35,207 bases of DNA from assembly GCA_964355785.1 (NCBI GenBank), contig CAYHEU010000001.1:1-35207 (forward strand). The letters are read 5' to 3'. A program made the position numbers and the translations under genes. This DNA is from an uncultured Candidatus Saccharibacteria bacterium. GTDB lineage: Bacteria; Patescibacteriota; Minisyncoccia; UBA6257; 2-01-FULL-56-20. A model generated the notes under the pieces. The model was not told where the DNA came from. It saw only the letters and a list, made by a program, of their open reading frames with translations, and made no database searches. This document shows, piece after piece, positions 2,618 to 30,589 of the stretch (within the stretch, counting starts at the first letter, position 1; each line of letters begins with the position of its first letter).

Positions 2618-3241
2618 ATGCAAAAACGCGTTTTCATAATTCACGGTTGGGATAGCTCCCCTTACGACGCATGGATCCCATGGCTTTGGACGGAGCTCGA
2701 GAACCATGACTTCAAGGTGGAGGTTCCTCTAATGCCGAACGCACAGGCGCCGGAGATAGAAATCTGGGTGAGCCACTTGAAGAATCTCGTGGGCGATCCG
2801 GACGAAGAAACTTATTTCGTGGGACACAGCGTCGGATGCCAAGCCATTATTCGCTATCTCGAATCACTCGAGGAAGGAACGAAAGTCGGCGGCGCAGTTT
2901 TTGTGGGAGGGTGGTTCACCTTGAGCGGTGATGCAATGAAAACCGAGGAGGAAAAGGAAGTTGCCCTCCCGTGGCTCGAGACGCCAATTGATTTCGAGAA
3001 AGCGAAAAGAGTCACGACGAATTTCGCCGCAGTGCTTTCAGATAATGACCCCTATGTACCCCTCAAGGACAATAAAGAAATTTTTCAAGAAAAGTTCTCT
3101 GCCCGAGTGATCATCGAGCACAACAAGGGACATTTCAGCCGAGAAGACAACATTACCGAGCTTCCGATCACGCTCGATCTGCTTCTTGATATGGTATATC
3201 AAAAAGATAAATTAGGCGTGGATGAGGAAACTTCTTCTTAG
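2618..3241 (+). CDS. Alpha/beta serine hydrolase (YdeN/RBBP9-like Ser_hydrolase family)
   Basis: 207 aa. FIIHGWDSS, nucleophile elbow VGHSVGC, LSDNDPYVP and HNKGHF form a Ser-Asp-His arrangement typical of this family. The ATG is only 7 nt after the tRNA-Ala 3' end. Confidence 0.8.
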   Translation: MQKRVFIIHGWDSSPYDAWIPWLWTELENHDFKVEVPLMPNAQAPEIEIWVSHLKNLVGDPDEETYFVGHSVGCQAIIRYLESLEEGTKVGGAVFVGGWFTLSGDAMKTEEEKEVALPWLETPIDFEKAKRVTTNFAAVLSDNDPYVPLKDNKEIFQEKFSARVIIEHNKGHFSREDNITELPITLDLLLDMVYQKDKLGVDEETSS

Positions 3242-8409: not shown

Positions 8410-9468
8410 ATGGAAGACAAAAAAATCATCTCCACCATCAAAAAGGTGATGCCTGCGGTCGTTTCGATCATAATCTCAAAACACCTTGAAGATATCGAAA
8501 AAGAAATCCCGCCGGAACTTTATCCTTTTCTTCCCGTTGATCCAAGCGACCCGGCTCACCCGAAACTTAAGATACCCGATGCACTCGTCGACAAGCGCGG
8601 CATGGTGAAGATCGGGGGCGGATCCGGCTTCATAGTAGAGTCTGATGGCCTTATCCTTACGAATAAGCATGTGATCAGCGACCCGAAGGCGGAATATACG
8701 ATCATCGCGGATGATGGCCGGAGGTTCAGCGGAGAAATCTTGACCCGCGACCCCATAAACGATGTCGCAATCCTTAAAATCAACGCATCAAATCTTCCGC
8801 GGGTGTTGCTCGGCAATGCCGCAAAACTTGAGCTTGGCCAAGGCGCAATCGCAATCGGAAACGCTCTGGGGCTTTTCAAAAATACCGTTTCTTTGGGCAT
8901 AATATCAGGACTCTCGCGTTCAATCTCCGCACAGGCGGATCCAAAATCCCCGCCGCAGGAAATGCGGGGGCTTATCCAAACGGACGCGGCAATCAATCCG
9001 GGAAACTCCGGCGGCCCCCTCGTGGACCTCTCCGGCTTCGCGATCGGCATAAACGCCGCAATCGTCTTTGGCGCCCAAAACATCGGCTTTGCGATTCCCA
9101 TAAACGCCGCGAAGCGGGATCTTGACGATCTCAAAAAATTTGGACGCATCCGGCGTCCGCTCTTAGGCGTCCGCTATATTACGATCGACGACAACCTCAA
9201 GGAAAAAATGAATTTGCCGGTAAGCTACGGGGCGCTCGTAATGCGCGAATCACCGCACGATCACGGCGTGCTTCCAAACGGACCCGCACACAAAGCCGGC
9301 ATCCGCGAAAAAGACATTATTCTCGAATGTAACCACAAGAAGGTTGACCGCGACCACCCTATCCAGGATGTTCTCGAGAACTTGAATGTCGGCGATATCC
9401 TCGAACTTCTCGTGCTCCGCGGCGAAAAAAAGTTCCCCGTAAAACTCACGCTCGCAGAGAGAAAGTAG
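8410..9468 (+). CDS. HtrA/DegP-family (S1C) serine protease with C-terminal PDZ domain
   Basis: 352 aa. Catalytic triad contexts LTNKHV (His), NDVAILKI (Asp) and GNSGGPLVD (Ser). PDZ-like C-terminus (GALVMRE…GDILELLVLRG). Confidence 0.9.
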   Translation: MEDKKIISTIKKVMPAVVSIIISKHLEDIEKEIPPELYPFLPVDPSDPAHPKLKIPDALVDKRGMVKIGGGSGFIVESDGLILTNKHVISDPKAEYTIIADDGRRFSGEILTRDPINDVAILKINASNLPRVLLGNAAKLELGQGAIAIGNALGLFKNTVSLGIISGLSRSISAQADPKSPPQEMRGLIQTDAAINPGNSGGPLVDLSGFAIGINAAIVFGAQNIGFAIPINAAKRDLDDLKKFGRIRRPLLGVRYITIDDNLKEKMNLPVSYGALVMRESPHDHGVLPNGPAHKAGIREKDIILECNHKKVDRDHPIQDVLENLNVGDILELLVLRGEKKFPVKLTLAERK

Positions 9469-9501
9469 AACAGCGAGTAGAAAGTAGGCGGTAGAAAGTA
9501 G
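9466..9501 (+). repeat. Heptad-periodic TAG array (left arm, GTAG heptamers)
   Basis: Plus-strand TAG at 9466 (the htrA stop), 9478, 9485, 9492 and 9499. The last four are spaced exactly 7 nt apart, so all three frames are closed. The arm is imperfectly complementary to the right arm at 9873..9903. Confidence 0.8.
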
Positions 9502-9514
9502 AGCTTTCAAGAAA

Positions 9515-9865
9515 ATGACCGGTGGATACAAAAATCTTATTGTGTGGCAAAAAGCGAAACTGCTTGCGATAGAAGTCTACAAACTAACCGACAACTTTCC
9601 AAAATCAGAAGTTTATGGCATTAGCTCGCAAATGCGCAGGGCGGCAGTTTCTATTCCCTCTAATATAGCTGAGGGTTATCGCCGGCACCATCACAAAGAA
9701 CAACTCCAATTTTTCAGAATAGCTTTCGGTTCGGGTGCGGAACTTGAGACTCAAATCGAAATAAGCAAAGAGATTTTCCCTCAATACAAATTGAATTTCA
9801 CAAAGGTGGAAATTCTGCTTGAGGAAATAATGAAAATACTCAACAAGCTAACTTTAGCCGATTGA
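9515..9865 (+). CDS. Four-helix-bundle protein (23S rRNA intervening-sequence protein / Avd-like family)
   Basis: 116 aa. YKNLIVWQKA…LAIEVYKLTDNFPKSE…ISSQMRRAAVSIPSNIAEGY…FFRIAFGSGAELETQIEIS is the hallmark pattern of this family. Confidence 0.85.
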   Translation: MTGGYKNLIVWQKAKLLAIEVYKLTDNFPKSEVYGISSQMRRAAVSIPSNIAEGYRRHHHKEQLQFFRIAFGSGAELETQIEISKEIFPQYKLNFTKVEILLEEIMKILNKLTLAD

Positions 9866-9872
9866 TCGCGCC

Positions 9873-9903
9873 TTACTCTCTACTCTCTACTTGCTACTCT
9901 CTA
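9873..9903 (-). repeat. Heptad-periodic TAG array (right arm, read on the minus strand)
   Basis: Plus-strand CTA at 9880, 9887, 9894 and 9901, which reads as minus-strand TAG every 7 nt. The last one is the stop codon of the 9901..10809 gene. CTACTCT heptamers. Confidence 0.8.
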
Positions 9904-10809
9904 GTATGTGTAGAGATCCACAAGGAGGCCGTTCTGATCGAGGAGAAGCACTCTGTCGTGCCGAAAATCAAGGAACTTGCTGTTTGGGCCGGTGTTCCCC
10001 GTCCACGCACGAACTTCTCTCCCAAGAAAATCCTCGTCGTTCTGATATTTTTCAAAACACCCGCGGTAGTTGATTTTATTCAAATACGCACGGCATTCGT
10101 AGTCGTCGAGCGCAATCGGCGGGTTCGATTCCGGCTCTGCGCAGTAACCGAGGGAATAAATATAGTCCTGACACTCACCGCGAAACCTCGAGATTCCATA
10201 CGAATCGACGATCGAAGGACAACCTCCGTAAAGCGGCGGATTAAAGTCGTAGTACTTCTCGAGATAGCCGAGGCACTTGTTAAGCCGCAAGTTGCGGCCG
10301 ATGGGACTTACCGTTGAGTAAATATTTAAGGAATCGCCGCTCCGCAGATAAATGTTGTTTTCCGGAGCATTCCCGAGCGGATCATAAACCTGAACGGCGC
10401 GATAAGGAACATTTTGAAAGCTTTTGTTCCCTTGGAGGCGCCAGCCCTTGAGCGGAATCGCGCGTTCGCCGTCGAACCATGCCGAAAGGACGATTTGGCT
10501 GTAATCGTCCGGAGAACCCGGGAATGCGGTCGCAATTCTCACCTTGTGGAAATAGGGTGAGAGCTGGTCGAGCGTAAATCCTTGGGGAATTTCTCCGGGG
10601 TCAATACTCGGAAGATTCCCTTGCGGCGGGGGCTCTTCCTGTGGTGGTTCGTTTTGCGGCGGAGGAATATTTTCCCCTCCCTCGTGAACCGCTCCTTTGG
10701 TCGACGTTGAATTTTCTCCTAGAGGACCCTGGAGCCGCCCCGGCTGATTTACATAAATCGCGGCTCCGATAAGAACGGCGAAAATTACAATTCCAAAAAT
10801 CCTCCCCAT
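9901..10809 (-). CDS. Membrane-anchored secreted protein, possible lamin-tail-like (LTD) domain plus Cys-rich C-terminal region
   Basis: 302 aa. GGAGG RBS. N-terminal TM helix IFGIVIFAVLIGAAIYV, a Pro-rich linker, then …IVLSAWFDGERAIPLKGWRLQGNK…IYLRSGDSLNIYS (LTD-like pattern), followed by 6 Cys. Confidence 0.75.
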   Translation of the reverse strand: MGRIFGIVIFAVLIGAAIYVNQPGRLQGPLGENSTSTKGAVHEGGENIPPPQNEPPQEEPPPQGNLPSIDPGEIPQGFTLDQLSPYFHKVRIATAFPGSPDDYSQIVLSAWFDGERAIPLKGWRLQGNKSFQNVPYRAVQVYDPLGNAPENNIYLRSGDSLNIYSTVSPIGRNLRLNKCLGYLEKYYDFNPPLYGGCPSIVDSYGISRFRGECQDYIYSLGYCAEPESNPPIALDDYECRAYLNKINYRGCFEKYQNDEDFLGREVRAWTGNTGPNSKFLDFRHDRVLLLDQNGLLVDLYTY

Positions 10810-10818
10810 ACCTCCTAA

Positions 10819-13800
10819 TTAAACCACGATATTTATCAAACGTTGAGGAACGTAGATCACGCGCTTCGGCTTTTTCCCCGCGAGAAACGCCGTTATTTTC
10901 TCTCTCCGAAGTGCGGTCTCTTTTGCATCAGATTCGGAAATATCCACATTGACCTCAACGCTGTCCCGAACCTTACCATTCACCTGAATTACCAACATAA
11001 ACTTTTCATCTTGAATAAGGCGTTCATCGTACGAAGGCCACGGCGAAATGTGGATTGAGTTCTTGTTTCCCAAAACATTTCTCCAAATCTCCTCGGTAAT
11101 GTGGGGCGCAAACGGGGCGAGGAGCTTGAGAAAATCTGAATAAGATTTTTTATCAGTCCCCTTTTCAAGTTCGGATAAAAGAATCATAAGCGAGCTTATT
11201 GCCGTATTGTAATGAAGATTTTCTATATCCTCGGTGATTTTCTTAATTGTTTTATGTACCAATCGCTCAATTTTCTTATTCGTGGCATTCGAGTTCATTT
11301 GGAGATTTGCATTGTGTTCTAATTTCCAAACCCGTTCCAAAAATCTCACCGGTCCCAAAATCCCCGCATCGCGGAAATCGCCGCCTTCCTCAAAGGGACC
11401 GATAAACATAAGATGCATACGGAGCGCATCTGCGCCAAATTTTTTGATGAACTCATCGGGGTTCACGATATTTCCCCGCGACTTTGAAATCTTTTTTCCT
11501 TCACGGATCAAAAGACCGTGCGCGCGAAATTTTTTTGCAGGTTCGTCTCCGCCCGAGGCGGATCCGCCTTTGGCGGAAAAAGGTAAAATCCCTAAGTCAC
11601 AAAGCGCTTTCCACATAAACCGGACGTAGAGAAGGTGGAGTACCGCGTGCTCCGCGCCGCCGATATACATATGAACCGGCAACCATTTTTTTATCCTGAG
11701 CTTGTCGAAGGGCGAATTCTTATCTTTTGGATCAAGATAGCGAAGATAGTACCACGCAGAATCAAGGAATGTGTCCGAAACGTCGGTTTCGCGAACCCCT
11801 TTTGCGCCACAGTGAGGACACTTCACCTCATAGAACGACCTTACCGTCGCAAGCGGCGATTTTCCCATGCCTTTCGGACGGAAATTTTTTACTTTCGGAA
11901 GTTCCACCGGCAAATCATTTTCTGGAACCGCATGCCAACCGGGCATATCATCCCTCTCGCCTCTTTTCTCCTTGGCACACGCCCCGCAGTAGATCATTGG
12001 AATCGGCGGCCCCCAATAGCGCTGGCGCGAGATCAACCAATCACGGAGGCGGTACTGGACCTTTTTTACTCCTCCGACATCACGCATCACCTTATCGCTA
12101 TCCACGAGCGGCGCATCGCTCGCGGGAAGCCCGAACATTTCCGCGAACTCCGCATCCCGCTCATCGTGCGCGGGGACGGCCATAATGGCGCCCGTGCCGT
12201 AACCCATAACCACATAATCAGCAACCCAGATGGGAATTTCTCGTTTTGTTCCGGGATTCATTGCCTCCACTCCTTTAAGCTCCACGCCTGTTTTCTTTCT
12301 TCCCTCGGCAATCCGCTCGTTTTCGGATTTCTTCTTTGCTCTTCTCACATATGCCTCAACTTCCCGAAGATTTAAGATCTGAGATTTTCCGCCCGAGGCG
12401 GATCCGCCTTTGGCGGAAAGATTTGAGATCAGTGGATGCTCTGGCGCAAGCACCACGTAGGTTGCGCCGTAGAGCGTGTCGGGACGCGTGGTGAAAACTT
12501 TTATTGTGGGCAACAGAGTATTTAATATAAGAGGTTCTTGCGCTCCTGTAAGATGCTCTTTATGTGCAAATCCTTCAATAAATTTAGTTTGTAATTTATC
12601 GCGCAAGTATTCTAAGTATGGACCTCGCTTATCTTTCTCCAGGGAATCGGAAATTATGGTTACAGAATTGCTCAATTTTTTCAGCAATTCGTAGTCATAT
12701 TCAAATGAAAAAGTTTTCCAAAATGGCCTCTCTTCGCCGGTACGAAAACGAGGCTCTACGGCTGGGGCAACAAGAACAAGCCCAGCGATGGGACGATTAA
12801 TCTTTTGCAATACTTTCATGGCTACTACTCCTCCTAAGCTATGACCAACGATAATAGTGTGCTCATTTATTCGGCAATTTTTAACAACATAATCAACTTG
12901 TTCCGATTCTACGGGATGATCAGTATTAGGCATTTGAGGTGCTTGGACACCAAAACCCTGTTGCTCCAGTTTCTCTTTTAACCACGGAATGAAGTTCTTA
13001 TTTACATGGCCAGTATAACCGTGGAGGATCAAAAAATTGGTATTTTTATTCAATACAACCGGAAAATCTATCTCCGTGCCTTCCGACTTCCCTATCCAGT
13101 TCCGCTGGGCAACTTTGATTCTCTCCGACCAATCAAGACCGTCCAGGTCTTTAATAAGGCGCTCGGCGTACTTGGTAATCCTGAAAAACCACTGTTCAAG
13201 CTCTTTTTTCTCCACGACAGAATCGCAGCGCTCGCATTTCCCGCCCGAACGACTGACGTCGCTCAGTCGGGCGGGCCCGCCAACAACCTGCTCGTCGGCT
13301 AAAACCGTGAGGCACGAGGGGCACCAGTTTACCGCCTGCTTTCTGCGGTAAGCCAGTCCGTTCTTGAACATTTGGGTGAAGATCCATTGCGTCCATTTGT
13401 AATACTTTGGATCAAAGGTTTCCAGATGCTCATTCCAAGCAAAACCATTGCCAATTTCACGGAGTTGGCGATAGAAGTTTTTCTCTGAAATTTTCGCTTG
13501 CTCGGCAGGATGCTTCTTTGTTTTCAATGCATAGTTTTCGGAGTGGATTCCAAAGCCATCAAGCCCGATCGGCTCGAAAACGTCATTCCCCTGCATCCGT
13601 TTCACGCGCCCATAGATATCGGATCCAACGAACGCATACATATTCCCGACATGGAGGCCCTCTGCCGATGGATATGGGAACATCATTAGGTTATAAAAAG
13701 GCGCAGCCTTTTTACCATGAGCCCGTCGAAGGGCAGAATGGTCACCTTGAGCGAAGGAGGGCTCATAAACCCCCTCTTTTAACCACTTGCTTTGCCAGTA

Positions 13801-13830
13801 TTTTTCTATCCTCTTAAAATCGTATTTCAT
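10819..13830 (-). CDS. leuS: Leucyl-tRNA synthetase with several in-frame insertions, including an alpha/beta-hydrolase domain
   Basis: Class I motifs: PYPSAEGLHVGN (HIGH-like) and KISKSRGN (KMSKS). Also NWCPSC…CERC Zn motif, NWIGKSEG, VFTTRPDT, YGTGAIMAVPAHDERD (CP1 editing domain) and RLRDWLISRQRYWG. Start placed at M18 (MKYDFKRIEKYWQ), which matches the conserved LeuRS N-terminus. The ORF itself extends up to 13881. Confidence 0.95.
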   Translation of the reverse strand: MKYDFKRIEKYWQSKWLKEGVYEPSFAQGDHSALRRAHGKKAAPFYNLMMFPYPSAEGLHVGNMYAFVGSDIYGRVKRMQGNDVFEPIGLDGFGIHSENYALKTKKHPAEQAKISEKNFYRQLREIGNGFAWNEHLETFDPKYYKWTQWIFTQMFKNGLAYRRKQAVNWCPSCLTVLADEQVVGGPARLSDVSRSGGKCERCDSVVEKKELEQWFFRITKYAERLIKDLDGLDWSERIKVAQRNWIGKSEGTEIDFPVVLNKNTNFLILHGYTGHVNKNFIPWLKEKLEQQGFGVQAPQMPNTDHPVESEQVDYVVKNCRINEHTIIVGHSLGGVVAMKVLQKINRPIAGLVLVAPAVEPRFRTGEERPFWKTFSFEYDYELLKKLSNSVTIISDSLEKDKRGPYLEYLRDKLQTKFIEGFAHKEHLTGAQEPLILNTLLPTIKVFTTRPDTLYGATYVVLAPEHPLISNLSAKGGSASGGKSQILNLREVEAYVRRAKKKSENERIAEGRKKTGVELKGVEAMNPGTKREIPIWVADYVVMGYGTGAIMAVPAHDERDAEFAEMFGLPASDAPLVDSDKVMRDVGGVKKVQYRLRDWLISRQRYWGPPIPMIYCGACAKEKRGERDDMPGWHAVPENDLPVELPKVKNFRPKGMGKSPLATVRSFYEVKCPHCGAKGVRETDVSDTFLDSAWYYLRYLDPKDKNSPFDKLRIKKWLPVHMYIGGAEHAVLHLLYVRFMWKALCDLGILPFSAKGGSASGGDEPAKKFRAHGLLIREGKKISKSRGNIVNPDEFIKKFGADALRMHLMFIGPFEEGGDFRDAGILGPVRFLERVWKLEHNANLQMNSNATNKKIERLVHKTIKKITEDIENLHYNTAISSLMILLSELEKGTDKKSYSDFLKLLAPFAPHITEEIWRNVLGNKNSIHISPWPSYDERLIQDEKFMLVIQVNGKVRDSVEVNVDISESDAKETALRREKITAFLAGKKPKRVIYVPQRLINIVV
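11548..11577 (-). repeat. Double-hairpin mini-element, family 2 (copy 2), in frame in leuS
   Basis: The sense strand TCCGCC-AAA-GGCGGA-TCCGCC-TCG-GGCGGA is exactly 10 codons (SAKGGSASGG) in phase. It is identical to 12388..12417. Confidence 0.85.
12388..12417 (-). repeat. Double-hairpin mini-element, family 2 (copy 1), in frame in leuS
   Basis: Same 30-mer (32 nt identical when flanks are included), encoding SAKGGSASGG at residues 489-498 of the ORF. Confidence 0.85.
13240..13275 (-). repeat. Structured palindromic mini-element, family 1, in frame in the leuS Zn-finger loop
   Basis: The sense strand CCCGCCCGAC-TGAGCGACGTCA-GTCGTTCGGGCGGG is exactly 12 codons (PARLSDVSRSGG, ORF codons 203-214). 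It sits between VVGG and KCERC. Same termini and same fold as 2257..2291. Confidence 0.85.
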
Positions 13831-13922
13831 TTTTTCTGCCTGCCCGCCGTAGTCCCGCAAAACGGAACGAAGGAGGGCCAATATTTTTCTATTTTTTGGA
13901 AGTTATAACTCTTCATTCAATA

Positions 13923-15384: not shown

Positions 15385-16213
15385 ACAAACCAAAAATCTG
15401 CTTCGCATTCTCAAAAATCCGCCTTTTCATCTCCTCCACCGAAACATTTTTAAGTTCCGCCAATTTTTTAACGACTTCAACCACATACGACGGTTCGTTG
15501 CGTTTACCACGATACGGAGCCGGAGATACGTATGGCGCATCGGTTTCGCTTAATATCCTATTCATAGGGAGCATCTTAATAACTTCGTCGTAATCGCGGG
15601 CGAATGTAATAACTCCGCCGAAAGTAAACAAAAATCCCATATCCAAAAGTGTTTTAGCGTCTTCTTTCGTACCGCTAAAGAAGTGAATGATGCCAGGATT
15701 GGGACGATTTAAGATTTTAGATTTAAGATTTAAGATTTCAATTAAATCCGCGAATGCCTGGCGACAATGGATCATCAACGGCTTCTTTACCTCGTTCGCA
15801 AGCTCAATTTGTTTTATAAATGTTTCGGCCTGTTTCTTCTTCGTTTCCTCGCCCAGACGGTAATAATCCAAACCACATTCCCCTATTGCCACAACCTTCG
15901 GGTCAGCGGCTAATTTTTTATAATAGTCGTAATCAAACGCTTCCCCGCGACTCGTAAATTCTTTCGCTTTATCGTCTGCGCCCAATTCTTTTATATCGTG
16001 ATAGGACTTCTCCGTATGAATTGGATGAAGCCCAATTGCAGCATAGACACCTTCTTTATACAAATTCGCAACCTCAACCGCTTTTTTTGAGGTATCTCTC
16101 TGCGTTCCGACATTCACTATCCAAACATTATTTCCGAGCGCACGGTCAATTACATCTTTCCGGTCCTCTTCGAATGCGGCAAACTGAACGTGGGTGTGGG
16201 CGTCAAAATACAT
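15383..16213 (-). CDS. tatD: TatD-family metal-dependent hydrolase/DNase
   Basis: 276 aa. MYFDAHTHVQF (HxH), IGECGLDY, LMIHCR, GIIHFFSG and SETDAPYV are canonical TatD motifs. Confidence 0.9.
   Translation of the reverse strand: MYFDAHTHVQFAAFEEDRKDVIDRALGNNVWIVNVGTQRDTSKKAVEVANLYKEGVYAAIGLHPIHTEKSYHDIKELGADDKAKEFTSRGEAFDYDYYKKLAADPKVVAIGECGLDYYRLGEETKKKQAETFIKQIELANEVKKPLMIHCRQAFADLIEILNLKSKILNRPNPGIIHFFSGTKEDAKTLLDMGFLFTFGGVITFARDYDEVIKMLPMNRILSETDAPYVSPAPYRGKRNEPSYVVEVVKKLAELKNVSVEEMKRRIFENAKQIFGL
15706..15740. repeat. Five tandem heptamers (GATTTAA-like) inside the tatD coding sequence
   Basis: GATTTAA GATTTTA GATTTAA GATTTAA GATTTCA, encoding …EILNLKSKILN… on the minus strand. Related to the TAGGATT arrays found at gene boundaries. 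Confidence 0.75.
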
Positions 16214-16222
16214 GCGAGAATA

Positions 16223-16248
16223 TAGGATTTAGGATTTAGGATTTAGGA
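16223..16248. repeat. Heptad-periodic stop array (TAGGATT x3-4) at the metG/tatD junction
   Basis: Plus-strand TAG at 16223, 16230, 16237 and 16244. Minus-strand TAA at 16229-31 (the metG stop), 16236-38 and 16243-45. Exact 7-nt period on both strands. Confidence 0.85.
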
Positions 16249-22162: not shown

Positions 22163-22234
22163 TAGAGAGTAGCTTGTAGCCAGTAGTGAGTAGGAAGAAC
22201 TTTTGATTTTCTACTTACTACTCTCTACTTTCTA
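22163..22234. repeat. Cargo-less inverted pair of heptad TAG arrays
   Basis: Left arm has plus-strand TAG at 22163, 22170, 22177, 22184 and 22191. Right arm has plus-strand CTA (minus-strand TAG) at 22211, 22218, 22225 and 22232, the last being the thyX-like stop. About 17-nt spacer. The reverse complement of the right arm, GCGAGTAGAAAGTAG, is identical to 15 nt of the left arm at about 9473-9487. Confidence 0.85.
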
Positions 22235-23953
22235 CTCGCTTTTGTTTGGAGAACTTTCCCCTACCCCCTGCCTCTTTTTCGCAAGTTTCTCGACAATATC
22301 CTTTTCTTTCTCGGAGATTTTCTCTTCTGTGCCGCGCCGCGCAATTGCGTAGTCGTTCATGTCCACAAGCATGAAACTCGCAAGAAGCGGAAATTTTTCT
22401 TTCACCAACCGATACTTTTCCTGCTCAATAAACCGGTAGTCGGGATGTCCTTGGGAAATGGTGCGAAGCTCTGTTTCCCAAAAAAGCTGACGGAAGTTCT
22501 TCCATTGATAAAATCGGAGGCGATACGCGAGCGGTACGACGTACTGCGCAAGAACCGGATCTTTCTCTTCGATCTTTCTGAAAAATGCGCTCGCTCCTTC
22601 CAAAGCTTCCCGGAATTGGCCCTCAAGGCCCGCCTCGGGGATTTCCGGCGGGACATCATAGCCATGGTGAGTCGAGAAGTATTCGCGATCCTGCGTCATC
22701 ATCCGGTGGCGGTGGAGATCTCGATAACTCCCGATATTCATCGTAATCTCAAAACGCAGGTATGAATTCTCAAACGCACGTCCGACTTTGTGCCAGCGCG
22801 CCGAACGATTCAAAAGATAGAAGCTTATTATTTCTTTTCGCTCCGATCCGGAAAGTTCTCTTGCGATCTGAAGCACTCTTTCCCATGTTGCGTGGGTGGC
22901 GGGAAAAATTATTCCCGCAATAATTTTTTCCTCCGCACGCGGGTCGCACTCCACGAGTTTCACCTCGGGCTTCGTCCCTCCTTTTTCGAGCAATTTCCCC
23001 TCTTCCGCATGCCGGGAGCTTTGGAGAAAACGGTGAACGGCCGCGCTCCGTTCGGCAAGATACCGCTGATATCCCTCCGATTTCTCGTCCCCAAGCCGCA
23101 AAAGAAGCGAAGGAATCTCGTTATCCAGTTCTCGCTTCACGGCGGAGGAAATCCACCGGAGTTCTCCCAAGGAATGCTTTGCGGTGCGATTAATCAAATA
23201 TTCGAGGGCCTGCGCATTCCCCCGGAACGCAACCTGCCCCAAGGTCGCCATAGGAAGAAGCCCCCGAAGGGTGTCGAACGCTTTTTTCTCCAAGACGGAT
23301 TCTTTTTCCTCGTAATTCTCCTTAAGCCACGCGAGAAGCCGCGGCAGGAGCTCCACGTAGGTATCAAAAAGATGGTCTAGCGTTTTCCGATACTCAGGAA
23401 GGATTCCGAGGCGTTCAAGATCCGGCTTCGGAATATAGTAGAGATAGCGATCCCTAATTTTCTTCCCAAAATTTACGTAGCGCGTGGATTTCTCGATCGG
23501 TTCGAGCCCAATCCGCTGATCCTCAACGAATTTCATCGCAACCTGCGAAATCCCCCAGAAGAGCACGTGCGTGCCCGTCATCTGGGCAATAGAGTCGTCG
23601 CCGTACTGGGAGAGCCACTTTGCATAAAATTCCTGCGCGCGCTGATTATTCAAGATATTTTTAAATCCCCGTTCGCGGAGAAAACTCACCGTCTCCTCGA
23701 GTTCTTTCGCGAGCGCTTTGTTTTCGCCCTCAAGGATCGGATAGAAATATTCCTTGAGAAGCACGCGGAGGAGCGAGTGCGGCGCACGGCTCGCGCGCGA
23801 ACAGAGCGCCCCTACGATCTCCGGCGGCAGGTTCCGAAGCACGTGCACGAGGCCGTCCACGTTTGTTGCGAACGGCTCCAAAAGGAATTTATCTTTTTCC
23901 GACCATTCTTCCCCGGGAAAATCGGGCGCGTACGCGTCTCTACTCTCCGGCAT
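22232..23953 (-). CDS. Long ThyX-like (FAD-dependent thymidylate synthase family) protein
   Basis: 573 aa. …GALCSRASRAP… and …YRDLHRHRMMTQ… resemble ThyX signatures. It is about twice the canonical length, and the RHR-x7-S serine is not at the canonical spacing. Confidence 0.6.
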   Translation of the reverse strand: MPESRDAYAPDFPGEEWSEKDKFLLEPFATNVDGLVHVLRNLPPEIVGALCSRASRAPHSLLRVLLKEYFYPILEGENKALAKELEETVSFLRERGFKNILNNQRAQEFYAKWLSQYGDDSIAQMTGTHVLFWGISQVAMKFVEDQRIGLEPIEKSTRYVNFGKKIRDRYLYYIPKPDLERLGILPEYRKTLDHLFDTYVELLPRLLAWLKENYEEKESVLEKKAFDTLRGLLPMATLGQVAFRGNAQALEYLINRTAKHSLGELRWISSAVKRELDNEIPSLLLRLGDEKSEGYQRYLAERSAAVHRFLQSSRHAEEGKLLEKGGTKPEVKLVECDPRAEEKIIAGIIFPATHATWERVLQIARELSGSERKEIISFYLLNRSARWHKVGRAFENSYLRFEITMNIGSYRDLHRHRMMTQDREYFSTHHGYDVPPEIPEAGLEGQFREALEGASAFFRKIEEKDPVLAQYVVPLAYRLRFYQWKNFRQLFWETELRTISQGHPDYRFIEQEKYRLVKEKFPLLASFMLVDMNDYAIARRGTEEKISEKEKDIVEKLAKKRQGVGESSPNKSE

Positions 23954-26185: not shown

Positions 26186-27181
26186 TTATATTTCCCTCGG
26201 AAAATATCCTTCGGGCGGGCGCGCAAGGAAAGATTCGAGTTCGTTGCGGCCGAGAAGCCCTTCGCGCGCCCCAACCTTCTGCACTACCGACATTGAGTTC
26301 ACTGGAGCCCACCGGAGCGCTTCTTTTATATCAAGTCCCAGCGCGAGCGCAACGGTAAAAGTCGATGAGAATGCATCCCCCGCACCGGTGCGCTCAAGCG
26401 GCGGCTTAGGATCCGGATAGGGCGGCATAAACCATATCGTCTCTTTCTCCATCGCATAGGCGCCTTCTTTCCCGTCTGTAATCACGGTGATTTTTGGCCC
26501 AAGCGACTGGATTCCCTTGAGGAGAATTTTGATGTCGCTCTCGCCTTTGAGTCCCAAGATGCGCCGCGCTTCTTATTTGTTGCAGAAAAACACCTCCGAA
26601 AGCTTGTAGATTACGGCCAACTTTTCTTTCCCCGCCTTAATCTGAAACGTCCCCGGCTGGAACGCGAGCTTGATCTTGGGATGCGCCGCAAGATACTCCT
26701 TGATCTCGCGGTGGAACGGGCCGCTCTCCTCTCCCAAGGAGGAAAGATACATCCATTTCGGATCCCCTATCGCGGGAAGTGCGTAGGGATACTTTTCATG
26801 CTTGATAAGAATAGTACGATCGTCCTCGTACCAGAGCACATAGTGATAATTCGTCTTCTCGCCCTTGTGCACCGCAACAAAGCCGGTCGCAACGTTTTCT
26901 TTCTTTAAGGCATCAAGACACTCCTTGCCGAAGTAGTCGTCTCCGAGGTTTGAAACGAGCGCGCTCCGGAGCCCCAGACGTGAGGCGGAGACCGCCGCGT
27001 TTGAGCTATTCCCGACCGCCGGAATTATATACACATCCTCGTAGGGAATCTTGTCCCCAAACCGCATGCAAATTTCGCAACGCTCGTGCCGCAGATCGCA
27101 GTGGACGGAAGCGTCCTTGAGCCGGATAAAGGCGTCGGTCACAATGTCGCCGATGGCAATGAAATCGTAGGATTGTTTCAT
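26186..27181 (-). pseudogene. PfkB-family carbohydrate (ribokinase-like) kinase interrupted by one in-frame TAA
   Basis: The N-part 26573..27181 (…AVGNSSNAAV…) and C-part 26186..26557 (…TGAGDAFSSTF…) are in the same frame. They are separated only by TAA at 26573-26575. The sequence reads …VFFCNK*EARRILG…, where the family normally has N-x-E-E-A. Confidence 0.75.
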
Positions 27182-28200: not shown

Positions 28201-28244
28201 CTAATAACTAATTTATACTAATGTACTAATCACGATAATACTAA
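28201..28244. repeat. Degenerate CTAAT/ATTAG repeat spacer upstream of the tkt C-subunit gene
   Basis: CTAATAACTAATTTATACTAATGTACTAATCACGATAATACTAA. CTAA recurs with spacings of 7, 10, 8 and 15 nt, giving stops in all frames on both strands. Less regular than the other arrays. Confidence 0.4.
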
Positions 28245-28977: not shown

Positions 28978-29838
28978 CTATTTGTGTCCCCTCCTTATTT
29001 TTTCCCCCCATTCGCGAAGTTCACGGAGCGCAATTTTTGCTTCCTCCGGCTTCGGGGGCTTGCCGTGCCAGCGGTAATCATCCTCCATAAAACTCACTCC
29101 TCTTCCCGGAATCGTGTACGCAATAATCATCGTAGGCCGCTCGTGAATCGCACGCGCTTCCGCAACCGCATCCGTGAAATCTTGGATGTTGTGCCCGTCA
29201 ACTTCCATCACGTGCCAATTGAACGATTCGTACTTCGCGCGGAGCGGTTCCAGGGGCATTATGTTCTCCGTAGATCCGTCTATCTGGATATTGTTCCTGT
29301 CCAAAATCGCGGTTAAGTTGCTGATTCTATTTTTCCCCGCAAACATCACCGCCTCCCATGTATTCCCCTCTTGGTGCTCGCCGTCGGACATAAGGCAATA
29401 GATACGGTATTTCTTGCTGTCCAGCTTTGCTGCAAGGGCCATCCCAATTGCTTGAGAAAGTCCGGAACCTAAAGGACCGGAGGTTGTCTCAACTCCAGGA
29501 AGCGCCGCGCGATGCGGATGCCCCTGGAGGCGCGAGTTTATTTTCCTTAGGGTTTTCAGTTCCTCAAGCGGGAAATACCCCGCGCGCGCGAGCGTCGCAT
29601 AGAGAATCGGGCAGATGTGGCCGTTTGAGAGCACCACTTTGTCTCGCTCAGGCCAGTGTGGTTTTTTGGGATCGTGGTTCAGGATATGGAAGTAGAGCGT
29701 TGCGAAGATATCAGCCATTCCCAAGGGTCCCGCAGAGTGTCCCGAACCGGCCTCTACGAGCATCTTAATCACATCTTGGCGCAACGTATTCGCCATCTCC
29801 TCAAGAAATTTTATTTTGTTTTCGTGAAGACCTTCCAT
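28978..29838 (-). CDS. Transketolase, N-terminal subunit (TPP-binding)
   Basis: 286 aa. …GSGHSAGPLGMADI…, …SNGHICPILYA… and …CLMSDGEHQEGNTWEA… (the GDG-x-E-G TPP motif region). Confidence 0.9.
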   Translation of the reverse strand: MEGLHENKIKFLEEMANTLRQDVIKMLVEAGSGHSAGPLGMADIFATLYFHILNHDPKKPHWPERDKVVLSNGHICPILYATLARAGYFPLEELKTLRKINSRLQGHPHRAALPGVETTSGPLGSGLSQAIGMALAAKLDSKKYRIYCLMSDGEHQEGNTWEAVMFAGKNRISNLTAILDRNNIQIDGSTENIMPLEPLRAKYESFNWHVMEVDGHNIQDFTDAVAEARAIHERPTMIIAYTIPGRGVSFMEDDYRWHGKPPKPEEAKIALRELREWGEKIRRGHK

Positions 29839-29843
29839 AAGAA

Positions 29844-29881
29844 TAGGAATTAGAATTTAGGAGTTAGTATTTAGGCAATAG
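29844..29881. repeat. Heptad-periodic stop array at the rpe/tkt-N junction
   Basis: Plus-strand TAG at 29844, 29851, 29858, 29865, 29872 and 29879, an exact period of 7 repeated six times. Minus-strand TAA (plus TTA) at 29850, 29857, 29864 and 29871. Confidence 0.85.
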
Positions 29882-29884
29882 ATT

Positions 29885-30562
29885 TTATAATGATTTGAGC
29901 GTTTCATAGGCCGCTTTCGGATCACGACTCTCAAAAATATGGGAGGCGGATGTGACGATGTCTGCGCCTGCATCCTTCACAAGCTTTGCAATTTCTTCAT
30001 TCACGCCGCCGTCAACCTCAATTTTAGCATGCGGCAGTTTGATTCTTAAAAATTTCACCTTCTCGAGCATAAGGGGAAGGAATTTCTGCCCGGCAAGGCC
30101 GGGATGGACCGCAAGGATCTGGAACTCAAGAAATTTTCCGCCTGCGGCGAGCAATTCTTCGACTGGCGTCTCGGGATTTATCGCAAGCATCGCCTCCGCG
30201 CCGTATTCTGCGCATTTCGCATACACCCACTCGATTCTTTTCGGATCAACCTCAATCGAACCTTCTCTTTTTGTGAGCGCCTCGAGATGCACGATCACGC
30301 GCTCCGCGCCGGCTTCGAGCCAATCCGGGATCGCCCGCTCCGGCTCCTCCACCATAAGATGAATTTCAAACTGAATGTCAGGATGTTTTTTCTTGAGGAG
30401 CTTGAACCCTTCCGGATTTCCCCACGTCTTGTTGAATGTAAAGCGGGCGTCGGCCACGTCAATATGAAGCCAGCCGTCCTTCGGAAGAAATTTCTTGGCC
30501 GCGGCAACTTTTTCGACTACGCACTCTGGCTCCACGCAATTAATCGCGGGAATGACTTGCAT
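29885..30562 (-). CDS. rpe: Ribulose-phosphate 3-epimerase
   Basis: 225 aa. …LHIDVADARF…, …HLMVEEP… and …EVDGGVN… motifs. Confidence 0.9.
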   Translation of the reverse strand: MQVIPAINCVEPECVVEKVAAAKKFLPKDGWLHIDVADARFTFNKTWGNPEGFKLLKKKHPDIQFEIHLMVEEPERAIPDWLEAGAERVIVHLEALTKREGSIEVDPKRIEWVYAKCAEYGAEAMLAINPETPVEELLAAGGKFLEFQILAVHPGLAGQKFLPLMLEKVKFLRIKLPHAKIEVDGGVNEEIAKLVKDAGADIVTSASHIFESRDPKAAYETLKSL

Positions 30563-30589
30563 AGGATTTAGGATTGAACCGATAGACCT

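Follow-up and report, generated by a model that had tools for sequence, protein, structure and literature searches.

The window analyzed here, a 35,207-nucleotide (nt) stretch of contig CAYHEU010000001.1, contains several arrays of tandem 7-nt units (heptads) whose repeats carry stop codons. These arrays are probably heptad repeats of an already known class, and they fall into two families: the arms of a cassette built around an S23p gene, and solitary insertions of AGGATTT-type units. The stop codons would then be incidental. A first-pass annotation had proposed that the arrays are selected all-frame translation insulators between tightly packed genes, with the footprint of a repeat-generating or mobile process as the alternative. 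That alternative fits far better. The arrays have a characteristic anatomy, are distributed across distant phyla, and show insertion polymorphism among relatives, including presence or absence of the cassette, a copy that lacks its open reading frame (ORF), and derived insertions at other junctions; tests of strand, stop type, junction type, and conservation give no stop-specific signal. The contig originates from Hainich groundwater, and its closest named relatives are Candidatus Liptonbacteria/Parcubacteria. Pfam scans of the ORFs reveal a gene set typical of the candidate phyla radiation (CPR), with a split transketolase, ThyX, a pilin, and an S23p/PF05635 gene.

AGGATTT-type units occur at 15706, 16223, 29844, and 30562 of the window. 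The focal array (29844-29881, minus strand) takes up the 46-nt gap that separates the rpe stop (29885-29887) from the transketolase-N start (29838-29836). Its plus strand consists of TAGGAAT, TAGAATT, and similar units, and its minus strand, which has the sense of the mRNA, of CCTAAAT-like units. As first described, plus-strand TAG recurs at 29844, 29851, 29858, 29865, 29872, and 29879, minus-strand TAA (plus-strand TTA) recurs at 29850, 29857, 29864, and 29871, and stops are present in all three frames of both strands. All frames of both strands are also closed at 16223-16248, a perfect (TAGGATT)x3.7 on the minus strand that takes in the metG stop (16231-16229) and is separated by 9 nt from the tatD start codon (16213-16211). 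This array encodes the end of MetG (...LFPRFLNPKS*), whose tail, FLNPKS*, is array derived. The two units reported upstream of rpe at 30562-30576 are found at 30562-30575 (TAGGATT, minus strand), in the rpiB|rpe spacer and directly abutting the rpe start codon. An array overlooked in the first pass lies in frame inside the TatD ORF (15706-15738, minus strand); the array is called as GATTTAA x4.7, and its sense strand reads AAATCTT x4.7, encodes the peptide EILNLKSKILNR, and leaves one frame open. The AAATCTT unit belongs to the same family as AGGATTT, from which it is one base apart. TAGGATT arrays read AAAUCCU in the mRNA, and their periodic TAGs are thus opposite in strand to both neighboring genes.

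GTAG-type units occur at 9466, 9873, 22163, and 22210. Five GTAG heptads (9466-9502, plus strand) form an upstream arm whose first unit is the htrA stop and which ends 12 nt before the S23p start. The downstream arm (9873-9903, plus strand), made of CTAC heptads (TACTCTC x4), is the reverse complement of the upstream arm, and its last unit is the stop of a convergent 302-aa gene. Bracketed by the two arms is a 116-aa S23p gene (9515-9865, plus strand; PF05635, Pfam E=2.7e-35), the 23S rRNA intervening-sequence protein, a bAvd-like four-helix bundle; the product is homologous to Xanthomonas XCC0516 (PDB 2GSC, E=2e-17). The genes around it encode HtrA, the 302-aa protein, and leucyl-tRNA synthetase (LeuRS). 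The minimum-free-energy fold of 9455-9915 pairs both arrays, and the arms joined via a linker fold with z=-4.2 and 28 inter-arm pairs. Between thyX and rplY, a second element (22163-22237, minus strand) consists of a GTAG x4 arm whose first unit is the thyX stop, a 16-nt spacer, and a CTAC arm (five plus-strand TAG); it folds as a hairpin (-26.7 kcal/mol, z=-3.2) with a predicted 17-nt loop. In alignment it is collinear with the upstream and then the downstream cassette arm, which identifies it as an ORF-less copy of the S23p element.

The period-7 stop arrays are real and nonrandom, as both the repeat finder and the motif counts confirm. Tandem Repeats Finder calls period 7 at 9476-9502, 9874-9903, 15706-15738, 16223-16248, 22210-22237, and 29844-29875. 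The motif (TAG-N4)x4 has 9 matches in the window against 0.00 expected from 100 shuffles, and (TAR-N4)x4 has 12 against 0.03. A window scan of periods 4-15 finds three runs at period 7, seven at period 14, and a marginal one at period 15; period 7 alone among tandem periods is enriched. Arrays in the window overlap stop codons or sit 0-15 nt from start codons. The suggestion that natural stops are the first unit of such arrays stands for htrA and thyX but fails for metG: its stop comes third among the TAAs that a ribosome encounters. Upstream of transketolase-C, the spacer at 28201-28244, previously described as a degenerate heptad array, contains irregular ACTAAT repeats at spacings of 7, 10, and 8 nt, and Tandem Repeats Finder makes no call there.

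Occupancy of the htrA|302-aa junction varies among relatives. The junction is empty and just 4-12 nt long in L002 (HtrA 78% identical) and L003; the window, L205, and L215 carry the cassette; at the same site, an ORF-less heptad hairpin is present in L021 and another array in L034. The short empty junctions indicate that an arm-ORF-arm unit of about 430 nt was inserted exactly between two convergent stops. The cassette borders coincide with TAG and CTA stop codons, and no clear target-site duplication is definable there. S23p orthologues from related species are all likewise flanked by GTAG heptads on the upstream side and CTAC heptads on the downstream side, with 3-nt spacers that vary, as is a homologue from another genomic setting. 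Two strain variants with an identical S23p protein have downstream arms that differ by 27 nt, and unit number varies at identical or near-identical S23p protein (L205 vs L212; L260 vs L261). The Pfam-scanned window ORFs include no transposase, the consensus scan for promoters and terminators across 9000-10500 gives no site at the arrays, and Rfam at gathering thresholds reports three tRNAs in the window and no match at any array. The GTAG/CTAC arrays are the inverted arms of a roughly 430-nt inserted cassette with the S23p gene in its loop, and in the transcript the arms may pair to enclose the ORF in a long, imperfect stem like that of the 23S rRNA intervening sequences (IVSs), which RNase III cuts.

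The solitary AGGATTT-type arrays are likewise not conserved in position among relatives. The metG|tatD array is present in 4/60 relatives against a 3.8% baseline, and the MetG of relatives ends ...LFPR(xx)* 0-7 nt before the tatD ATG, which makes the window array a derived insertion of about 26 nt. In a relative with 87% identical Rpe, rpiB and rpe overlap with no array between them, and a different heptad unit (NTCAAAA x4) follows rpe; three more distant relatives have no array at the rpe junctions. Searches with tblastn and a hidden Markov model found an S23p homologue beside AGGATTT arrays in only two cases, each with arms of another unit, so the solitary arrays are not simply arms of a nearby cassette. 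We propose that this family (AAAUCCU in mRNA) was recently gained by insertion or expansion in the metG|tatD, rpiB|rpe, and rpe|tktN spacers of apparent operons, as well as within the TatD reading frame at a tolerant loop. Such arrays could arise via slippage or template switching with a 7-nt preference, and A/T-rich units bearing TAG or TAA would persist only outside reading frames or after patching.

Patching is visible in TatD itself, where a loop carries period-7 arrays in 19/73 homologues versus 5.3% of other genes. In the window array, a single T>A change in the third unit eliminates exactly the TAA that would otherwise be in frame, and the TatD array of L018 has the same type of stop patch; both arrays were worked through by hand. 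The heptad-coded loop precedes the GxxHFF strand and is found in about a quarter of Parcubacteria homologues (alignment A1), among them the window, L003, L018, L038, L044, L057, L060, L064, L066, and L078. Loop length is nearly constant although the units vary (AAATCTT, AATTCWT, CGAATCA, AACTACT, CATGGAG, and others), which implies in-place unit turnover without frameshift. TatD also has other variable in-frame insertions, e.g., SGVPERASPQ(Q/Y)GAGR after HCR, and PKKARLPAGAFLSPVASAKGEAKEG; the carriers in alignment A1 are P0005, P0009, P0036, P0057, P0056, P0023, and P0075. These insertions resemble small repeat elements (cf. the Rickettsia palindromic elements).

LeuRS is a second conserved protein with a recurrent heptad-coded variable loop. 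AATTTYC units encoding the peptide KFSISSSQFSI lie at L003:12901-12932, L034:5134-5165, and L044:1914-1945. The array DNA is about 94% identical across these three loci and the flanking coding sequence is less conserved; their TatD proteins are 67%, 55%, and 47% identical, respectively, to that of the window. The LeuRS of the window (10819-13881, minus strand; 1020 aa) contains a complete PF06821 serine-hydrolase domain (residues ~284-460) just before the editing domain, and this domain shares 26% identity with the hydrolase encoded by a gene of its own at 2618-3241. In relatives, a short loop occupies the hydrolase site, and in several of them heptads encode it. The borders of the hydrolase domain show no insertion signature for the heptads; those of relatives simply occupy the same variable loop.

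Period 7 dominates well beyond the window, as the comparison with other tandem periods suggested at the outset makes clear. The lineage sample comprises 80 TatD-centered loci from metagenomes (780 kb). In a strict scan of periods 2-21, these loci yield 32 arrays at period 7 and at most 8 at any other period; at a repeat-finder score of at least 40 there are 39 arrays of period 7, 20 of period 12, 19 of period 15, and 14 of period 9. Of the 39 strong heptad arrays, 22 are wholly in coding sequence, 9 lie across gene ends, and 8 are in spacers. Spacers and gene edges hold 44% of the arrays and noncoding DNA makes up 9% of the sample, an enrichment of about fivefold, but over half (56%) of the lineage arrays are translated. 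A search for exact (AGGATTT)3, with one genome per GTDB species, finds at least 120 stretches in Planctomycetota, Bacteroidota, Acidobacteriota, Verrucomicrobiota, Kiritimatiellia, Patescibacteria, Cyanobacteria (Nostoc), and others. The 120 multi-phylum loci listed (810 kb) contain 258 period-7 arrays versus at most 31 of any other period, and a typical array there has 4-5 units (median 4.6). The (AGGATTT)n arrays separate housekeeping genes such as rplB and rpsS. In Nostoc spp. (L094, L115, and L133) they lie between rplB and rpsS and after rpsS in the S10 ribosomal-protein operon, and read AAAUCCU in the mRNA, the same orientation as in the window.

The association of heptads with S23p genes holds in two independent samples and several phyla, and had earlier been remarked, in the literature consulted, only for the 23S IVS of Coxiella. 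The inspected S23p genes come from Pedobacter, Microgenomates, a marine conjugative element, and plasmids (Nostoc, Stanieria, Picosynechococcus, Geminocystis, Anabaena, Pseudanabaena, Leptolyngbya, Aulosira, Gemmatirosa, and Azospirillum). Judged by eye, heptad arrays occur in the S23p flanks of about 19/21 lineages, mostly inverted and with lineage-specific units. A strict automated test, which demands that the same 4-mer recur at least three times at period 7 in both flanks in reverse-complementary form, is passed by 7/15 S23p genes versus 12/1531 other genes. In an independent IMG/VR sample it is passed by 13/49 S23p genes versus 1/206 others, or by 30/49 versus 40/206 when either flank counts; the same test at periods 6, 8, or 9 is passed by at most 3/49 S23p genes. 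S23p flanks fold together with z<=-2.4 in 12/18 cases by per-locus shuffles, which replaced a comparison of duplex energies with all other genes that was confounded by the GC range of the control loci. Plasmid S23p homologues are almost all in Nostoc, Calothrix, and Anabaena, classic taxa for short tandemly repeated repetitive sequences (STRRs). On plasmids, S23p cassettes also sit in or beside CRISPR-cas operons (L231, Picosynechococcus; L235, Anabaena sp. 90; L236, Pseudanabaena), where they occupy the cas10-cmr3 and cas6-cas4 intervals and a site upstream of cas4. A cassette in L222 lies inside a conjugation operon, between PrgI-like and TraC-like genes. The Pseudanabaena galeata plasmid (L236) has direct rather than inverted arrays, with (CTAAAAG)x~15 upstream and (CCAAAAG)x~9 downstream of S23p.

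Heptanucleotide repeats have served as cyanobacterial strain markers since 1990; to our knowledge, no function or origin of bacterial heptanucleotide repeats has been established. Described examples include the STRRs of Calothrix and Anabaena, GGGAATC in Xanthomonas, and GGGGA(T/C)T in Nostoc, and an over-representation of heptamers among the simple repeats of many bacteria was reported in 2007 (Rehm et al. 2015, PMC4692102, and as cited therein). Such repeats lie mainly between aligned ORFs, less than 50 bp from the start on the noncoding strand or over the stop, often as inverted pairs, and most are transcribed (PMC4692102). The arrays of the window resemble them in having 7-nt tandem units in at least three head-to-tail copies, few families at many loci, a preference for period 7, placement in spacers near starts and stops, inverted pairs, and variation between related genomes; AGGATTT also has a GGATT core in common with the units of Rehm et al. 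In contrast to those G-rich units, which on inspection contain no stop codon on either strand, the window units are A/T-rich, bear TAG or TAA, and close frames, and the G-quadruplex proposed for G-rich heptads is impossible for them. The host (Parcubacteria, CPR) and the many arrays in frame in conserved genes (TatD and LeuRS) likewise differ from described STRRs. The first-pass statement that the repeats are undescribed is thus too broad, since heptameric simple repeats near gene ends are known (PMC4692102), yet it is correct in part.

The closest counterpart of the cassette is the 23S IVS of Coxiella burnetii, in which two or three strain-variable GACAGAT heptamers precede the S23p ORF and RNase III cleaves the stem (Warrier et al. 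2016, PMC4990558); 23S IVSs with an S23p ORF also occur in Leptospira and others, as cited there. Shared with the window cassette are a PF05635/S23p ORF in the loop of a long stem formed by terminal inverted repeats, strain-variable tandem heptamers upstream of the ORF, and the status of an element regarded as selfish or inserted. Unlike the 23S IVSs, which lie in helix 25 or 45, the window cassette sits between the protein-coding genes htrA and the 302-aa gene; both of its arms are built of heptads, the window holds an ORF-less copy, and RNase III cleavage of its arms is putative. Miniature inverted-repeat transposable elements and repetitive extragenic palindromic (REP) elements also combine ORF-bearing and ORF-less palindromic copies in one genome, occupy short gene-end spacers, and vary in site occupancy among relatives, as the empty, cassette-bearing, and ORF-less hairpin sites do here; however, the window has no transposase, and its arms are tandem heptads rather than unique inverted repeats. 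Diversity-generating retroelements use an Avd accessory protein, but no reverse-transcriptase domain is present among the 30 window ORFs scanned against Pfam. The heptanucleotide phase variation reported for Haemophilus influenzae hmw promoters (PMC12721329 and PMC8262952) likewise involves tandem 7-nt repeats that lie upstream of genes and gain or lose copies by slippage; those repeats lie in promoters or 5' untranslated regions and tune adhesin expression, whereas the window arrays lie in housekeeping operons and proteins and show no population length variation.

Insulation, the reading that the arrays are selected to place a stop in every frame of both strands and so shield packed genes from read-through or frameshifted ribosomes, is very improbable. 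Frame closure at 29844-29881 and 16223-16248 and the invariant TAG of the focal array are in its favor, and among the loci listed 20/64 co-directional (AGGATTT)n arrays overlap the upstream stop codon. That natural stops lie inside arrays is an automatic consequence of insertion: wherever an all-frame-closing array lands at the end of a gene, the first stop in frame is bound to be one of its own. Junction usage follows the baseline: (AGGATTT)n arrays occupy 64 co-directional, 19 divergent, and 16 convergent junctions versus 488, 118, and 114 (multi-phylum loci listed). Consensus units contain a stop on 76% of strands in spacer arrays and on 69% of antisense strands in arrays within coding sequence, compared with 52% predicted by composition; this similarity makes stop content a property of the unit families and not of location. 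Nor does the stop type agree with selection for termination. Period-7 trinucleotide chains in Parcubacteria number 17 for TAG/CTA (about 2850-fold over expectation), 6 for TAA, and 4 for TGA, whereas the real stop codons are most commonly TAA (53%), with TAG at 26%. Seeding of TAG arrays by natural stops was rejected on the same figures, as TAG supplies 26% of stop codons yet accounts for the majority of chains built on stop codons. Across phyla, the unit varies most at the TA of TAG: in degenerate AGGATTT units beside perfect cores, the T mismatches in 35% and the A in 31%, versus 16-26% elsewhere. Both genes next to the focal array are antisense to its conserved TAGs, over half of the lineage arrays are in coding sequence, with in-frame stops patched in the two TatD arrays worked through, junction arrays lack positional conservation, and the related GGGAATC and GGGGATT units occupy the same positions without stops. 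Frame closure and the stop codons in the arrays are best read as by-products.

Several results weigh against the view of the arrays as inserted or expanded repeats with incidental stops. A slippage event of one unit would frameshift a coding array, so turnover of coding arrays needs another route, and copy-number variation in the window's own population is absent, the arrays being identical in replicate assemblies L001 and L082. TAG never changes in the focal array or in the GTAG arms, unlike the other positions, and TAG/CTA leads all period-7 trinucleotides of Parcubacteria in enrichment, at the level given above. Something constrains the TAG core, and GUAG-CUAC pairing accounts for the paired family only. 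Among spacer arrays chosen without regard to unit, divergent junctions are mildly under-represented (12 observed vs about 20 expected) and closure of all frames is slightly more frequent in sense (63/105) than in antisense (51/105), mild signals that would also favor insulation; both are expected if stop-overlapping arrays are counted.

HutP reads UAG-N4-UAG-N4-UAG, and HutP and TRAP are ring proteins that read periodic UAG or GAG triplets. Their sites resemble the arrays in having UAG with 4-nt spacers (period 7) in about 3-6 copies, and the conserved (G)TAG core with a variable spacer looks like a protein-read motif of this kind. The TAGs of the AGGATTT arrays, however, are on the nontranscribed strand, and general Pfam scans of the window proteins show no HutP or TRAP homologue. 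Paired and solitary arrays alike might instead be putative binding sites of the ring-shaped S23p/Avd-like protein, or of another oligomer reading a 7-nt-spaced motif, which would give the heptads of a genome a part in regulation, RNA processing, or element propagation, as the cis sites of a system acting in trans and not as mere slippage products. We consider this unlikely. It is consistent with the conserved (G)TAG core, with the period-7-specific arrays that flank S23p genes in several phyla, with the typical array of 4-5 units, with the concentration of plasmid S23p genes in STRR-bearing Nostoc, Calothrix, and Anabaena (Xanthomonas has both), and with the homology of the window protein to XCC0516, described as a homopentameric toroid (PMC4990558). 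Arm units nevertheless differ from solitary units within a genome (GTAG vs AGGATTT in the window; likewise in L062 and L099), and the recurrence of AGGATTT in very distant phyla argues against co-evolution with a lineage-specific protein. A REP-like role, in which transcribed hairpins or unstructured tracts terminate transcription or protect and partition segments of polycistronic mRNA, has a still lower probability. Hairpins formed by inverted pairs do lie between co-directional genes, classic hairpins accompany the arrays in L062 and L034, arrays favor gene-end spacers, and the described repeats are mostly transcribed; but the arrays at 9000-10500 coincide with no terminator- or promoter-like site, solitary AGGATTT arrays lack an inverted partner and sit 0-15 nt before starts in apparent operons, coding arrays cannot be terminators, and position is not conserved.

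More speculatively, heptad arrays and S23p genes (pentameric four-helix bundles) could form one system across phyla, in which arrays would serve as the cis arms of S23p cassettes, with solitary and ORF-less arrays as derivatives or trans targets and a putative reading of one unit per subunit of the S23p ring; this is possible, though we hold it only tentatively. If true, it would give the unexplained bacterial excess of 7-nt repeats a protein partner and a propagation mechanism, and would take in the cyanobacterial STRRs, the Xanthomonas GGGAATC repeats, and the arrays of the window. The reading preferred here, of known-class heptad repeats in a cassette-arm and a solitary family, extends the class to CPR/Parcubacteria. 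Also new are the recurrence of the same AGGATTT unit across very distant phyla, the presence of heptad arrays in frame inside essential proteins, and the use of one heptad family as the arms of an S23p/Avd-like gene cassette. For annotation, stop codons and C-terminal tails in such genomes can be repeat encoded and call for caution.

The remaining observations concern the 35 kb of this genome that the window covers. Nearly all genes from 9901 onward are on the minus strand. The first pass was right that several genes downstream of arrays lack an obvious Shine-Dalgarno motif, but this is a genome-wide trait and not specific to arrays: Shine-Dalgarno-like motifs precede 5/27 window genes, and initiation appears to be largely independent of Shine-Dalgarno pairing. 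The ThyX-like gene (22232-23953, minus strand) encodes 573 aa, about twice the usual length, and matches the Thy1 profile over two stretches, of which residues 374-522 match best. Two adjacent ORFs (26186-26557 and 26573-27181, minus strand) divide a PfkB-family sugar kinase into a 202-aa N-terminal and a 123-aa C-terminal part; pseudogenization, a frameshift, or a genuine gene split may be the reason. The replicate assembly L082, from the same population, matches the window at 99.9% identity except for about 90 nt at ~75% identity inside the transketolase-N gene (L082:1685-1803 vs window 29651-29769), with an adjoining duplicated segment, and this patch may reflect strain recombination or an assembly chimera.

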